Source: Okamejei kenojei (taxonomy: Eukaryota). Taken from it: DNA of 64,000 nucleotides. Shown here piece after piece: positions 12,001-45,000 of this stretch; position 1 is the first letter of the stretch; every line of letters starts with the position of its first letter. The DNA is taken from contig CM069149.1 in the NCBI GenBank assembly GCA_035221665.1, positions 30,194,001 through 30,258,000 on the forward strand. Direction: 5' to 3'. The position numbers are program-made.

Positions 12001-15000
12001 TACATTTTAGTTCAGTTTAATTTAGAGGCACAGCATGAAAACAGGCCCTTCAGCCCACTGAGACCGTACTGACCAGTAATCACCCATTATTAGTTCTATC
12101 CCAACACGAAGGACAATTTACAGAAGCCAATTAACCTCCAAACCTGAATGGAGGGATTGTAAATAAAGGGTGAACAAGGGCAAAGGAGAGAAAATAAAGC
12201 ATTGCTGGGATTGAGATGCAGAGCAAAGCATTCCCTGGAAATCTGAAAGGTGAAAACTAGGAGTAACTAGAAAATTGGGCATCTAAGGAGAGAAAATCCA
12301 AGCAATTGTTACAGGAGACCTTGCATCAGTGTTGGCCAGCTCAGGCTCAGCGGCAGGTTATTTGAAAATGTAACTCTTAATTTGGTGATTTTCTTTGAGC
12401 TATGTTGATTTTTATTGGAAGAGTGCAGAAGGCTAAAGAGAGAAAGATCAGAGTAAGATGGAGTGCGAGGTCACTGTACACAGGGTGAAGTAGGGTCAGG
12501 CTTCACTAGGTCAATGAGGTGAGTGGGATCAAAGTCACCACATAAATAGGGTAATTGGGAAAGATGTTTCCCCCCGTACACAGAGTGAAGGCAGACAGGG
12601 GTTTCTTAGCAGACAGGTTAAGCAAGGTCTGGGATTACACTGTTGGACCAATTGGGTCAGGGGCCACTCTGTACATGGGCTCAGTGGGCTCAGGGGTCAC
12701 TTTATACAGGTTCTGCTACTCTCTGTACGCTGGGTACTAACTCACTTGTTTCCCTGCAATCTTCATAGCTGTAACATGCCTATCATAATCCTAAAACACA
12801 AACATATAGAAGGACGTCAGAGGTGGGAGTTGGTCTCGGTGATCTGCGGCTGTGATGAAGCAGACCCAGGGCTGGTGTTCACATCGGGAAACGGACCACG
12901 GGGACACTGAGTGGCGACAGCACCGGCCCCGGGGGACAGGCCCCGCCCGATGCCTGGGTTTGGACAGGAACCCCATCGGAGGCAAGGTTAGAGATGACTG
13001 AGTCAGGGGTCACTCTCCTTACAGGGTGAATGAGTTTACTATAGAATGTTGGTGGGACCGTAGGTGGGGGTGGGGGTGTGGGGGTGACTGCACACTGTTT
13101 TCATGTTGGGTTGTAAGCTACCCAAGCAGAATATGATGTGTGGTTCCTCCAGTCTCTGTGTGGCTTCACTCTGGTAATGGATGAGACCGAGGACAGAAAG
13201 GCCGGTATGGGAATGGGAAGACGAGTTAAGATGGTTAGTAACTGAGAGATCCAGCAGGCATTGGTGGGCCGACGGCAAGTGTTCGGGGAAACAGTCTCGC
13301 CAATATGGAGCAGGCCACATCAATAGCATTGTCTGCAGTAGATGGGGTTATAGAAGGTGCAGGCGAATGCCTGTCTCACCTGGAAGGGCTGACAGGTCAC
13401 CCTTTACACAGGGCCAGTGAGGACATGGGCTCAGTAATGATTATACACACGGCCATCGGTCACTGAACTGAGGGTCAAAGGTGTAAGAAGTAACTGCAGA
13501 TGCTGGTTTACACCAAAGAAAGACACAAAATGCTGGAGTAACACAGCGGGTCAAGCAACATCTCTGGAGAAAAGGAATAGGTGACCTTTCGGGTCGAGAC
13601 TCTTCATCAGTCTGATTCGAAACATCACCTATTTGTTTTCTCCAGAGATGCTGCCTAACCTGCTGAGTGACTCCAGCATTTTGTCTCAGGGTAAAGGGTT
13701 TTCATAAAGGCTGGTGTGGCCAGTGTTCATTTTGCACAAAGCATTAGTGCGGTCAGGGGTAATTTTTTATGTGGGGCAGGATTAGGGATCACTCTGACCA
13801 AAGGGAGAGCAGGATCAGGGGTCACTCCGTACATATAGTAATTAGGGTTAGCGGTCACTCTGTACACCAGGTCAGTGGGGTCAGGTGTCTGTACACAGTG
13901 GGTTCCTGCTATTCTCTGTATGCGGGTACTAACTCACTTGTTTCTCTGCAAGCTTCATAGTTGTGACATTTCTACCATGCTCCTAGAACACAAACACATA
14001 GAAGGACGTCAGAGGTGGGAGTCGGTCTCGGTGATCTGCGGCTGTGATGAAGCAGACCCAGGGCTGGTGTTCGCACTGGGAAACTGGCAATCGAACCACG
14101 GGGGCACCGAGTGACGACAGCACCGGCCCCGGGGGACAGGCCCCGCCCGATGCCTGGATTTGGACAGGAACCCCATCTGTGGCAAGGTGTTGGGTTGTAA
14201 GCTACCCAAGCAGAACATGAGGTGTGGTTCCTCCAATTACCAGTCGGGCCTCACACTGGTAATGGAGGAGGCCCAGGACAGACAGGTCGATATGGGAAAG
14301 GGAAGGAGAGTTAAAATGGATAGTAACCGAGAGATCCAGCAGGCCTTGTGTTCGGCGAATCAGTCTTAGGAGCAGGCCACATCATTGAATGCAGTAGATG
14401 GGCTGAACGCCCGTCTCAGCTAGAAGGACAGAAAGGTCACTAAGGACAGGGCTCAGTAATGTCTAATCACAGGGTCAGCGGTCACTGAACAAAGGGTCAG
14501 GGGAATCAAATTGTTACTATGTAGTTTTCAGGACTCACTCTAACAGTATGGTCAAAGGCAACGGGGTCAAGCTGCACACAGGGTCAAAGGCGTAAGAAGG
14601 AACTGCAGATGCTGAACACCGATGATAGACATAACATTCTGGAGTAACTCAGCGGGACAGGAAGCATCAGTGGAGGAAAGGAATAGGTGACGTTTCGTGT
14701 TGAGACCCTTCATCAGTCTGACCTGAAACATCACAGATTCGTTTTCTCCAGAGATGCTGCCTGACCTGCTGAGTTACTCCAGCACTTTGTGTCTATCACA
14801 GGGTCAAAGGGTTGAGAGGCCCCTTTGCACAAAGGCTGGTGTGGCCAGCGTTCATTCTGTACAAAGGATTATACATTCTGTACATAGTCAGGGGTGATTT
14901 TTGTGCATGGGGGCAAGAATAGGGATCACTCTGACCAAATGGTCAGCAGAGTCAGGGGTCACTCCTTACACAAGGTCAGTCGGGTCAAGTGTCTCTATAA

Positions 15001-42000: not shown

Positions 42001-45000
42001 CAGTCAGTGAAGTAAATGAGAAGCATGGTTGGTGGGGCCAAGGATCAGTCTGTGCACTGTGTGTGGGGTCAGGGTAGGGGGAGCAGAGTGAGTTGGTGCA
42101 GGTGACTGTGTTTAGGACAGTGGAGCCAGGGGTCACTCTGTAGAAATGGTGAGTGGGGTCATGGGTAACAGTATTCACAGGTGAGTGGGGTTGTCATTCC
42201 CTCTATGGCCTGGGCGCAGCGGTAGAGTTTATACATTACAGCGCCAGGGTCCCCGGTTCTCTCCTAGCTACAAGTGCTGTCTGTACGGAGTTTGGACGTT
42301 CTCCCAGTGACTGCGTGGGTTTTCCCCGGGTGCTCCAGTTTCCTCCCACACACCAAAGATGTACAGGTTTGTAGGTTAATTGGTTTCTGTAAAAACTGTA
42401 AATTGTCCCTAGTGTGCAGGATAGTGCTAGTGTACGGGAATTGCTGGTTGGTGCTGACTTGGTGGGCCAAAGGGCCTGTTTCCGCACGGAATCTCTAAAC
42501 TAAACTAAACTGCTGGAGCTAACTCACTTGTTTGTCTGCCAGCCTGCTCATTGTTGCACGTTCTATATTATCCTAAAAGATAAAGAGGTAAACCCACCAA
42601 TAATCTCCAGGCCCGCTCTCAGTGTAAATCTGAACAGGCCAGGGTGCCCGGAATGGTTCCCTGCACTGGGTGTGAGGGGTATGGACATCAACCTGACATA
42701 ATTATCCCTTATACAGGGTCGGGAATCACTGGACATCAGGACAGGGATCAGGGTTCTGTCTATACTTGGGGCCAGGGGTCACAGGGCACAAGACCATGGT
42801 CACCATACAGAGGGTTAGAGTTTCCAGTGGTCATTCTAGGCCCAGGTTCCAAAGGGACAGAGATTTCTCTGTACTCATGACCAGGGATCACTGAACACAG
42901 AGTCTGAGAGGTCAAGCAACGCTCCGTATACAGGGTAGGTGCGATCAATTTATTGGGGCAGCAGGGAAGGGGGTCTCTCTCTCTCTGTACAGAGGGTGAG
43001 GGTGTGCAAGGGTTTTTTGATAAACACAGGGTGAGCAGGGTCAGGGGGTTACTGTGTACTAGATGTGAGTGGGGTCAGGGGTCACTGTATTTGCAGCGTG
43101 AATGGGGTCAGGGGTCACTGTACTCGCAGGGTGAGTGGGGTCAGGGGTCACTGTACTCGCAGGGTGAGTGGGGTCAGGGGTCACTGTACTCATAGGGTGA
43201 GTGGGGTTGACGTCCCTTCTACCTGAACTAACTCACATGTCTCACTGCCAAGTAGCTTCCTGCCTCAAGTTCTCCATCATCCTAAAGCAGAAACACAGAG
43301 AGAAATTCATCAACTGATGCTGGGGGTCTGTGCTGATCCCCTGGGTCGGCACCTCAGTGGAAGAGCAGGTAGTATCCTCGAGGGTGTGACTGCAGTCTGG
43401 TGGAGGGACACGACGAGAACTGGACAACGGCCACTGGTGAAGGGTGACAATATAGCAGCGTTACTGGAGCATGGTGGACATTGCTGCCCTGGCCCTCGTG
43501 AAAACAACGGAGATGGCTAAATGGCCTTTGAACCAAGCACGTGGGCCTCCACGACCATGGACTGGGTGGGCCGAATGGTCTGATGTAAGGCCTGCAGAAC
43601 CTGCGCATAGTGGGTACTCACAAGCACAGCGTGAAATTAGCTGTAGATACTTGTGATCACAACGGGAAGTGTGTCTGCAGAACCTGTGAACTGTGTGAAG
43701 CGGGTGGGTGGATAATGATGAACACAGTGAGACGTGAGACTGCTGACACTCATGCACACAGTGTTAAGTAGGCTTGTGAATACTCACGAACACGGTGTGA
43801 AACAGCTTTCTGGATAATTGTGAAGAACAGGATGTGGGCTCAAGGATGTTAGCTCAAAGTGGGACGTGGGGCAGTGGGTGTAACAGAGCAGGAAGTGTGT
43901 CAGTCAACACCTATAAACACAGCTGAAGGTGAGCAGTAGTGAATACAGTGGGGTGGGCTCATGGAGACACCTGAACACAATGGGAAGAGGCCTGCAGACA
44001 CCGTAAACACAATGTGATGTAGGCTTGTGAACACGTGAGCAAAGTGTGAAGTGGGCCTATGGATACTTGTGAACACAGTGTGAAGTGGGCTTGTGAAGGT
44101 TAGCACAAAGTGGGATGAGGAGCAGTGACATGGCAAGTAGGAAGTGCACTAGAAAACTCTTGCAAACTCAGCTAAAGGTGACCAGTAGTGCACAGGTGGG
44201 AAGTGGGGTTGTGGCCACTTGTGAACTCATTGGGCAATGGACGTCACTAGTAAACATTGGAATGGATTAATGGGCTAGTTGTGGATGGTCTAGTCTAGTG
44301 GATACTAGTGAATGCAATCAGGAGTGGATTAATGGACACTGGTGAACACTGTGAAGATCAGTGGTGGGATGCACTTGTTTACCTCGATGTTGATTCAGGA
44401 CATGTGTAAGCCTATGTCAGGAAGAGAGTGTGTAGGAAACTAAATATTCCAACTCCCTGGACCGGTCGTCTAATTCTCTCCACCTTCGACTTTGAAAATC
44501 AGTCTTTACAGGCTCAGTCTAAACAACTACTCATCCCTCTCACAACCTTTAGCGATTGTGCTGCCATGTCCAGCGGCGATGGAACCCAAACCAGATCCAT
44601 CCTTGTGCATGTACTCAAATCCATCCATGATTGTATCACCCTGTGGTAGCAGAATCTCTGGTACAAATGAGCAGGCAACACTTCCCTCCCCTCTCCTCAG
44701 AAGCTTACCTTTGGCATCCGTTTGCGTGTGATATTCTGTCCCAGCCTGGTGAGGAACGAGATGGGCGATTTTGTGGTAACCCCAATGGTGGATGAGTGAA
44801 ATCCCAGTAGGTATTCTGTAGGGGAGAAGTCCATTCATAACTTTAGCCCAGTGGCTGCAAACGCAGAACGAGTCAGTGCAGCTGATATAAGTCGCCTATA
44901 TGAACAGGACCTGCCACTTAAACCTGTTCCGTTGAACCAAACTCTAAATCAGACCCACTTTCTTTCATATTCTGGGTCAACAGTAGATAAATGTAACAGA

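Follow-up and report, generated by a model that had tools for sequence, protein, structure and literature searches.

In a 64,000-nucleotide stretch of DNA from the skate Okamejei kenojei (contig CM069149.1 of assembly GCA_035221665.1, positions 30,194,001 to 30,258,000), here called the window, the minus strand between positions 12746 and 43281 contains 28 short exon-like cassettes that were evidently multiplied by tandem duplication. Their location is a large intron of MICAL3, beyond the exons for the CH domain and directly after the post-CH exon. The array probably encodes the repeat tail of a short MICAL3 isoform consisting of the monooxygenase (MO) and CH domains, whose transcript would end in an alternative last exon located shortly behind the final cassette.

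The cassettes were identified by two routes. A strict regular expression applied to the minus strand recovered 25 of the 28, and the other three (28126-28170, 26668-26712, and 22990-23034) were obtained by short-word BLAST with cassettes and their flanks as queries, followed by alignments. The three cassettes missed by the strict pattern are copies of the B type described below and have damaged signals. As listed in Table 1, 24 cassettes are 45 nt long, two have a length of 48 nt, one of 39 nt, and one of 46 nt; this recount matched exactly the number and the size tally given in an earlier description of the window, termed the sequence-only reading in the following. The length is a multiple of three in 27 of the 28 cassettes, which are symmetric with phase 0-0 boundaries. 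Frame 0 was proposed to be the stop-free one, and it is in fact open in all 28 cassettes; frame 1 contains a stop codon in 27 of them, the 46-nt copy being the exception, and frame 2 in all 28. The window sequence contains no N at all, and the introns separating the cassettes span 0.3 to 3.6 kb.

The splice signals are equally regular. An acceptor AG is present in 26 of the 28 cassettes (ACC and TGG are found instead in 26668-26712 and 22990-23034, respectively), each preceded by a UG-rich tract in which 14 to 17 of 20 positions are pyrimidines, and the donor is GTGAGT in 27 cassettes and GTGGGT in the copy at 28126-28170. Twenty-four cassettes are canonical with respect to AG, GTGAGT, and a length divisible by three. 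The earlier figure of 25 intact cassettes, which when joined give 1125 nt or 375 amino acids, holds if the GTGGGT donor is counted as working; otherwise the number is 24. The defective copies comprise the two without acceptor AG, one of which also has internal indels, the 46-nt copy, and the copy with the GTGGGT donor. As a control for chance occurrence, the pattern [CT]AG-N45-GTGAGT was counted. It occurred 19 times on the minus strand within 12700-43330 and twice on the plus strand of the array, but not once on either strand of the other 33.4 kb of the window.

From sequence comparisons, the host gene is identified as MICAL3. The MICAL FAD monooxygenase insert was recognized by Pfam (PF25413, Rossman_Mical, E = 3.1e-18) at 63188-63454, the window holding only the 3' part of this domain, and it is followed by a CH domain with Pfam matches on two exons. 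The best match of the MO exon in the PDB was the MICAL3 entry 6ici with 140 bits, compared to 73 to 75 bits for MICAL1 entries. When the stop-to-stop open reading frame (ORF) around the exon ending with ...RKRMPK was used for a protein search, two proteins were obtained from two candidates (80 to 2000 amino acids), both named MICAL3 or MICAL3-like: isoform X4 of the Leucoraja erinacea MICAL3-like protein (951 amino acids) and isoform X14 of Amblyraja radiata MICAL3 (1905 amino acids). These two proteins share 97.9% identity over 663 amino acids. In an exon-by-exon comparison, the seven exons of the window upstream of the array were identical to L. erinacea X4 in 329 of 344 residues (95.6%) and to A. 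radiata X14 in 328 of 344. By these figures, the window stems from a third, slightly more remote skate-like species. The sequence-only reading had described 44709-44815 as a phase-0 MICAL exon, which the complete identity to L. erinacea X4 (35 of 35 residues) confirmed, and its placement of a tandemly duplicated phase 0-0 array inside a MICAL gene is borne out by the Pfam, PDB, and skate protein comparisons.

The exons for the LIM domain and the C-terminal bMERB/Rab-binding domain (RBD) were sought by tblastn with residues 666 to 1905 of A. radiata X14, which gave no match in the window at E <= 1e-3; these exons must therefore be located past coordinate 1 and not in the window. A second flanking MICAL exon had been proposed at 7331-7429. 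This ORF (EDRL...VKRQ) does have AG/GT borders, a length of 99 nt, and phase 0-0, but it is part of neither L. erinacea X4 nor A. radiata X14 and had no match in Pfam or the Atlas. It may resemble the mammalian CH-LIM linker, a likeness that we take as a lead only.

The gene model of a related skate indicates how the cassettes are used. In L. erinacea MICAL3-like X4, which is an NCBI RefSeq model, 19 units of 14 to 16 residues follow directly after ...RKRMPK. In a unit-level alignment, all 19 units paired in order with cassettes of the window, with 240 of 287 residues identical. Nine cassettes of the window remained without partner (Table 1), and two of these, cassettes 13 and 15, have damaged splice signals, namely, the GTGGGT donor and the missing AG. 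The copy number differed between the two skates, for instance for the C type, with five identical copies in the window versus two in L. erinacea X4. Based on this gene model, the cassettes are almost certainly spliced as exons and probably included together in series. The 90%-identity cluster of L. erinacea X4 comprises 14 sequences, all from one contig, which hints at alternative inclusion of cassettes. A cluster of mutually exclusive exons of the Dscam type, in which each transcript receives a single cassette, would be compatible with the observation that neighboring exons are homologous and of equal length, the usual substrate of such a mechanism. The 19 collinear units within one predicted protein argue against mutually exclusive use, and we regard it as highly improbable.

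The same model shows where the array leads. L. erinacea X4 ends with ...AGKQ-K-Y-stop, i.e., two codons after the final unit and without a LIM domain. On the whole minus strand of the window, an AG followed by codons for K, Y, and stop occurs only once, as AG|AAATACTAG at position 11951, 795 nt past the last cassette. The site is preceded by a pyrimidine-rich acceptor (tttcttatttactcag), and a polyadenylation-type AATAAA is located about 400 nt downstream at 11551-11546. The uniqueness of this site together with the AGKQKY end of L. erinacea X4 indicates that the alternative last exon of L. erinacea is conserved in the window. Pieces of this exon and its 3' untranslated region (UTR) resemble the segments 58356-58429 (73%), 46912-46987 (77%), and 14743-14772 (90%), which suggests that interspersed repeats contributed to the formation of the last exon. 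In A. radiata X14, RKRMPK is joined directly to the LIM exon (HSTKRKEF...CYFC...) without any array unit, and the RKRMPK|HSTKRK junction shows that the LIM-side exon begins at phase 0. Taken from these sequences, the comparison points to two products of the gene, a long MO-CH-LIM-...-RBD protein made without the array and a short MO-CH protein with a repeat tail.

The sequence-only reading had interpreted the array as a modular linker between the CH and LIM domains. Variable subsets of cassettes placed in frame between RKRMPK and the LIM exon of full-length MICAL3 would lengthen the CH-LIM loop and may tune the autoinhibition exerted by the CH, LIM, and Rab-binding domains; such an arrangement could coexist with the short isoform. 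The reading phases permit it, as all cassette boundaries and the start of the LIM-side exon are in phase 0, and the long inter-domain loops of MICAL3 may affect autoinhibition (PMC11315924, in part). However, the only gene model that carries the array ends with K-Y-stop, the corresponding exon is conserved in the window, A. radiata X14 skips the array, and none of 2275 candidate proteins of 1666 to 4755 amino acids matched the array part of L. erinacea X4, a result that the search method itself rates as weak evidence. What stands of the linker proposal is the compatibility of phases, and we consider inclusion of the array in the long protein unlikely.

According to the reading that we prefer, the spliceosome would include most of the competent cassettes consecutively downstream of ...RKRMPK, as in the L. 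erinacea model, and the transcript would end with K-Y-stop in the alternative last exon 0.8 kb past the array. The resulting protein would be a short MICAL3 of about 950 to 1040 amino acids composed of the monooxygenase, the CH domain, and a tail of 290 to 375 residues made of 15-residue repeats, lacking LIM and the C-terminal Rab-binding domain, and the long isoform would skip the entire array. MICAL1 is autoinhibited by a tripartite assembly of CH, LIM, and RBD, and mutagenesis indicates that this mode is conserved in MICAL3, whose inter-domain loops are much longer than those of MICAL1 and may influence autoinhibition (as described in parts of PMC11315924). Since the short isoform would have neither LIM nor RBD, it should, by extension of the work on MICAL1 and MICAL3, escape this tail-mediated autoinhibition. 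The repeat tail itself would then serve as a flexible spacer or as a binding module of low specificity.

A more far-reaching version, which is speculative and in our view very doubtful, would make the array a skate lineage-specific "ruler" of variable copy number on an autoinhibition-free MICAL3. Each basic 15-residue unit would bind weakly to F-actin or to membranes, and up to 25 micro-exons, included serially and combinatorially (with 14 or more annotated variants in L. erinacea), would set the reach or the processivity of the monooxygenase along the filament. The UG-rich acceptors and a C-rich minisatellite in the introns would act as a shared code that switches the array as a whole.

The duplicated entity was found to be a whole unit of exon and intron. 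Units of 400 to 5000 nt share 67 to 96% identity, and the homology includes the flanking intron. The most recent ones are the C-type units, four to five of which (1.56 kb, 89 to 95% identity) lie between 28.7 and 35.3 kb, and an A-B double unit of 2.37 kb with 95.7% identity; many older pairs show 67 to 88% identity. Three young exon families can be distinguished, namely, A (DYDRRVTAMKIAGKQ), C (DYGRSVTAMKLAEKQ), and B (DNLGREPMTHPAERN), in addition to six older unique cassettes at the 5' end of the array. Cassettes 1 and 6 are tied to the B family by homology of their flanks. A query with cassette 2 gave short matches of 15 to 21 nt at the donor junctions of A and C cassettes, which hints at a sequence-based assignment to the A/C family, although anchored flank identities do not single out that pairing. 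Cassettes 3 and 4 represent a local duplication of a 636-nt unit with 85% identity, and the single L. erinacea unit at this place mixes features of both copies. Around each exon a core from about -75 to +120 is conserved, and the distal intron is variable.

In most introns between cassettes, the distal portion is filled by a 33-bp minisatellite with the plus-strand consensus GTGAGTGGGGTCAGGGGTCACCGTGTTCACAGG, which is G-rich on the plus strand and C-rich in the pre-mRNA. About 30 arrays of it are distributed over 15547-43207 (e.g., 27886-28096 and 43027-43207), their copy number varies among the introns, and degenerate copies extend to about 11000 and 44100. The C-rich pre-mRNA contains many CTGAC/CTCAC words resembling branch points. 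The minisatellite is a likely substrate for unequal crossing-over, which, when repeated, would have multiplied whole units made up of the exon, a core of about 75 nt upstream and 120 nt downstream, and the distal intron. The range of unit identities from 67 to 96% suggests that expansion took place at many different times and is still ongoing. The possibility that the cassettes derive from the exon at 7331-7429, namely, from its 5' part, was considered and rejected: local DNA alignments of this exon and its flanks with 10 cassettes gave z-scores of -1.4 to 2.9, the best two of which were each matched by 5 of 200 shuffles, and peptide alignments were no better than shuffles. Within the array, a 2-kb block at 38001-40000 shows an inverted GC skew (-0.28 versus +0.12 to +0.23 in the remaining array). 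It is located in the unusually long intron of 3647 nt between cassettes 4 and 5 and probably represents an inserted element of reverse orientation; Pfam searches with ORFs from the plus strand of this block and with other repeat-like ORFs gave no match.

Several features of the cassettes argue for selection. Seven old lineages (1, 2, 3/4, 5, 6, A/C, and B) have exon identities between them of only 0.24 to 0.69, and all seven retain AG...GTGAGT, the open frame 0, and lengths divisible by three, with the frameshifted 46-nt copy 26 as the exception. The earlier statement that cassettes 1 to 6 keep their splice sites and, apart from the 39-nt cassette 4, the length of 45 nt is borne out. If a random 45-mer is assumed to have an open frame about half of the time, seven open frames correspond to a rough estimate of p ~0.007. 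The proximal flanks within the A/C family are 0.90 to 0.97 identical compared to 0.83 to 0.93 for the exons, and a comparison of cassettes 6 and 20 gave 22 of 25 identical positions in the upstream flank, 29 of 45 in the exon, and 22 of 25 in the downstream flank. Regulated cassette exons typically show such a proximal intron, conserved to at least the same degree as the exon itself. The surrounding introns gather indels, with gap fractions of up to 0.37 within 100 nt, and the common unit order and terminal exon of the two skates likewise count for selection. Judged by these comparisons, selection appears to act on splice competence, frame, and length and to be loose on the peptide sequence. 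Loose constraint on sequence with length and frame kept is what would be expected of a flexible spacer or tail.

A number of observations weigh against the proposed short isoform with a functional tail. The sole protein that bears the array is a computational gene model of another species, a corresponding A. radiata protein was not found in word-indexed searches covering 523 to 4755 amino acids, and the phases of the cassettes fit inclusion in the long isoform equally well. Compared to the upstream exons, which are 95.6% identical to L. erinacea, the array reaches 84%, or 87% if the frameshifted copy is left out, and the unique cassettes 1, 2, 3, 5, and 6 agree in 60 of 75 residues. Pooled ratios of nonsynonymous to synonymous differences among paralogues (pN/pS) were 0.48 for the A/C family (8 distinct sequences) and 4.1 for the B family, the latter value coming from 5 distinct sequences with just 7 variable sites. 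The contrast between the conserved core and the distal intron may in part reflect slippage of the minisatellite rather than selection. The tail had no match in Pfam or the PDB, and a single-sequence AlphaFold2 model of the L. erinacea tail was unreliable (mean predicted local distance difference test score [pLDDT] of 45.7, predicted template modeling score [pTM] of 0.13).

These observations bring up the alternative that the array is a by-product, i.e., a macrosatellite-like expansion of one exonized unit that is spliced at a low level or in the model only and gives a peptide without selected function. Besides a pN/pS not clearly below 1 and a tail without recognizable fold or family, it would account for a peptide that diverges 3 to 4 times faster than the MO-CH exons, the different copy numbers of the two skates, the 3 to 4 cassettes that have already decayed, and the A. 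radiata long isoform that skips all cassettes. It is difficult to reconcile with the deeply diverged cassettes. Both splice signals (AG and GTGAGT), the open frame, and lengths in multiples of three have been kept in them while their introns gather indels, and deviations from 45 nt are confined to copy 4 (39 nt), two A copies (48 nt), and the frameshifted copy 26 (46 nt). Unit order and a dedicated terminal exon are moreover conserved between the two skates. We therefore consider a mere by-product quite unlikely and retain the short isoform with a repeat tail as the probable explanation.

The 375-residue tail that the 25 intact cassettes would encode contains 72 K+R and 59 D+E and is charged and net basic; Cys, Trp, and Phe are absent. 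In the low-confidence AlphaFold2 model, A- and C-type units formed helix and B-type units coil. A look-alike search in the Atlas gave no usable match for the tail. An exhaustive HMMER search of 1.84 billion representatives (E <= 0.001), whose 50% clustering would hide other array-bearing MICAL3 proteins, yielded 11 matches. Eight of them were bacterial-type proteins with a 15-residue "GD.NGDG.IT.PEIA" repeat and three had other repeats; one shares a GRS..AMK word. They were rejected as homologues, as none of the 11 had MO-CH similarity, and are read as matches in periodicity or composition. Among proteins of 523 to 1665 amino acids, the array part of L. erinacea X4 matched 1 of 7849 candidates, which was L. 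erinacea X4 itself. The sequence-only reading had regarded the array as specific to the lineage; the protein searches fit this view but do not prove it.

In titin, the PEVK region is encoded by tandemly duplicated short exons for repeats of about 28 residues, and their differential splicing sets the length of the spring. This exon array is the nearest analogue in kind (PMC6469411, in part). In both cases, many duplicated symmetric short exons each encode one repeat of a charged, low-complexity, and probably unstructured segment, the copy number varies between species, and exon inclusion can set the length. The skate array differs by its units of 45 nt instead of about 75 to 84 nt, by its location in an enzyme gene instead of a muscle spring, by the lack of sequence similarity, and by leading, in the L. 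erinacea model, to an alternative terminal exon and not back to the main protein. A looser analogue is provided by the micro-exon genes (MEGs) of Schistosoma, with short symmetric exons of 3 to 81 bp and long introns (bioRxiv 10.1101/2023.06.21.545858, in part). They share runs of symmetric micro-exons, a frame that is kept on skipping, and combinatorial protein variation; unlike the MEGs, each of which is an entire gene for a secreted parasite protein with exons that do not form one homogeneous tandem family, the skate array is a module within a vertebrate gene that is conserved and codes for a cytoskeletal enzyme. Tandem duplicated exon substitution and mutually exclusive exons, as far as presented in sections of PMC9741552 and PMC5740500, have in common with it the tandem origin and homologous neighbors of equal length. 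Those exons usually occur in 2 to 3 copies, one of which is chosen, whereas the window has 28 copies and the related model includes 19 together.

Vertebrate neuronal microexons controlled by SRRM4 (nSR100) typically have a UGC element near the 3' splice site. The cassettes resemble them in a length of at most 51 nt, in symmetry, in a strongly conserved proximal intron, and in belonging to the surface or linker of a cytoskeleton-related protein, but neuronal microexons are single conserved exons and not an array. Only 4 of the 28 cassettes have TGC in the 20 nt preceding the AG, the tracts being UG/U-rich. For human MICAL3, the legend of S7 Fig in PMC4465641 states that the gene model would yield two distinct proteins whose exon sets do not overlap, which means that another vertebrate has transcripts limited to the N-terminal part; no repeat array is mentioned in that legend.

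The array is already contained in a public predicted protein, L. erinacea X4, no paper describing it was found, and it belongs to the known class of tandem exon-duplication arrays. The search for a published description gave no paper on MICAL3 in skates, and those listed on MICAL exon duplication and on MICAL3 alternative splicing describe no such array, supplements not being covered; in the main text of the little skate genome paper, MICAL does not occur. The array is striking for its copy number and regularity, with a peptide that is weakly constrained. If the preferred reading is correct, it would be an unusually clean vertebrate case in which unequal crossing-over turned a 45-nt exon into an extended protein repeat, a natural system for testing how the spliceosome defines two dozen consecutive micro-exons, and the source of a short MO-CH isoform that is predicted to be a potentially always-on actin oxidase with a novel tail. 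Gene predictors and standard RNA-seq mappers readily overlook or truncate such arrays. Public RNA-seq data of L. erinacea cover 5 embryonic stages and 13 organs (PMC10115646, in part).

Table 1. Positions of the MICAL3 exons, the cassettes, and associated features in the window
Feature	Position	Strand	Remarks
MICAL3 MO-domain exon (a)	63197-63454	-	84/86 identical to L. erinacea X4
MICAL3 MO-domain exon (b)	62062-62177	-	36/38 identical to L. erinacea X4
MICAL3 exon (c), end of MO domain	58495-58621	-	40/42 identical to L. erinacea X4
MICAL3 exon (d), MO-CH spacer	54022-54115	-	26/31 identical to L. erinacea X4
MICAL3 CH-domain exon (e)	50517-50664	-	Pfam CH, 1.8e-11; 46/48 identical to L. erinacea X4
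MICAL3 CH-domain exon (f)	49195-49388	-	Pfam CH, 8.6e-06; 62/64 identical to L. erinacea X4
Post-CH exon, last before the array	44709-44815	-	Ends ...RKRMPK, phase 0, donor gtaagc; 35/35 identical to L. erinacea X4
Cassette 1	43237-43281	-	45 nt, DDGELEAGSYLAVRH; TAG acceptor; GTGAGT after ...GTGAGACAT; L. erinacea unit 1, 11/15
Cassette 2	42528-42572	-	45 nt, DNIERATMSRLADKQ; L. erinacea unit 2, 14/15
Cassette 3	41854-41898	-	45 nt, GLLSRTPTSAEAEKS; L. erinacea unit 3, 10/15
Cassette 4	41228-41266	-	39 nt, GLLSRTAAELEKS; duplicate of cassette 3; no L. erinacea partner
Cassette 5	37536-37580	-	45 nt, AIYRSMMTVQTPEKR; L. erinacea unit 4 (14 aa there), 12/15
Cassette 6	36865-36909	-	45 nt, ENVVLEALTRPSPKH; L. 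erinacea unit 5, 13/15; flanks homologous to B type
Cassette 7, C type	36107-36151	-	DYGRSVTAMKLAEKQ
Cassette 8, C type	34332-34376	-	Within the block of 1.56-kb units
Cassette 9, C type	32746-32790	-	1.56-kb unit block; no L. erinacea partner
Cassette 10, C type	31156-31200	-	1.56-kb unit block; no L. erinacea partner
Cassette 11, C type	29559-29603	-	1.56-kb unit block; no L. erinacea partner
Cassette 12, A type	28498-28545	-	48 nt, DYDERRVTAMKIAGKQ; L. erinacea 16-aa unit 8, 15/16
Cassette 13, B type	28126-28170	-	Frame open, weaker GTGGGT donor; no L. erinacea partner
Cassette 14, A type	27509-27556	-	48 nt, EYDDRRVTAMKIAGKQ; L. erinacea unit 9, 14/16
Cassette 15, B type	26668-26712	-	Pseudo-exon, acceptor region lost (ACC); no L. 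erinacea partner
Cassette 16, A type	26184-26228	-	DYDRRVTTMKIAGKQ; L. erinacea unit 10, 15/15
Cassette 17, B type	24208-24252	-	DNLGREPMTHPAERR; L. erinacea unit 11, 14/15
Cassette 18, B type	22990-23034	-	Pseudo-exon, TGG acceptor and internal frame-disrupting indel pair; no L. erinacea partner
Cassette 19, A type	22433-22477	-	DYDRRVTAMKIAGKQ; no L. erinacea partner
Cassette 20, B type	20917-20961	-	DNLGREPMTHPAERN; in 2.37-kb A-B unit, 95.7% identity
Cassette 21, A type	20384-20428	-	AAG acceptor
Cassette 22, B type	18548-18592	-	No L. erinacea partner
Cassette 23, A type	17983-18027	-	AAG acceptor
Cassette 24, B type	17503-17547	-	DNLGHEPMTQPAERN; L. erinacea unit 15, 12/15
Cassette 25, A type	16559-16603	-	L. 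erinacea unit 16, 15/15
Cassette 26, C type	15045-15090	-	46 nt, frameshifting in this assembly; aligned L. erinacea unit intact
Cassette 27, C type	13938-13982	-	EHGRNVTTMKLAEKQ
Cassette 28, A type, final unit	12746-12790	-	DYDRHVTAMKIAGKQ; L. erinacea unit 19, 14/15
Candidate alternative last exon	11546-11951	-	Acceptor tttcttatttactcag, then AAA TAC TAG (K Y stop); ~400-nt 3' UTR
Exon-like ORF EDRL...VKRQ, candidate downstream exon	7331-7429	-	99 nt, phase 0-0, AG/GT borders
33-bp minisatellite, example	23910-24182		8.3 copies; G-rich plus strand, C-rich pre-mRNA

In other parts of the window, searches for RNA genes gave no matches in Rfam at gathering thresholds and no tRNAs with ARAGORN. 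ORF fragments resembling the endonuclease/reverse-transcriptase end of a long interspersed nuclear element are located on the minus strand at 10304-10970 and 3800-4616; within the former, 10710-10970 showed a weak, sub-threshold Pfam match to Exo_endo_phos_2 (E = 0.0069), and several copies of an "...LYSLE.R..." tail motif were seen. These fragments are not part of the array described here. Just downstream of the 7331-7429 ORF, the minus strand at 5870-6753 is GC-rich (0.50) and contains open frames of 97 to 198 amino acids with an internally repeated sequence rich in Pro, Arg, and Ala that has no Pfam match. The MO exon at 62062-62177 is flanked by a G-rich (GGTG/GGGGTG) repeat at 61682-61908 and a C-rich 25/50-bp tandem repeat at 62281-62452, and a perfect run of 30 G residues is found on the plus strand at 46045-46074, in the intron that separates the CH exon from the exon ending with RKRMPK.

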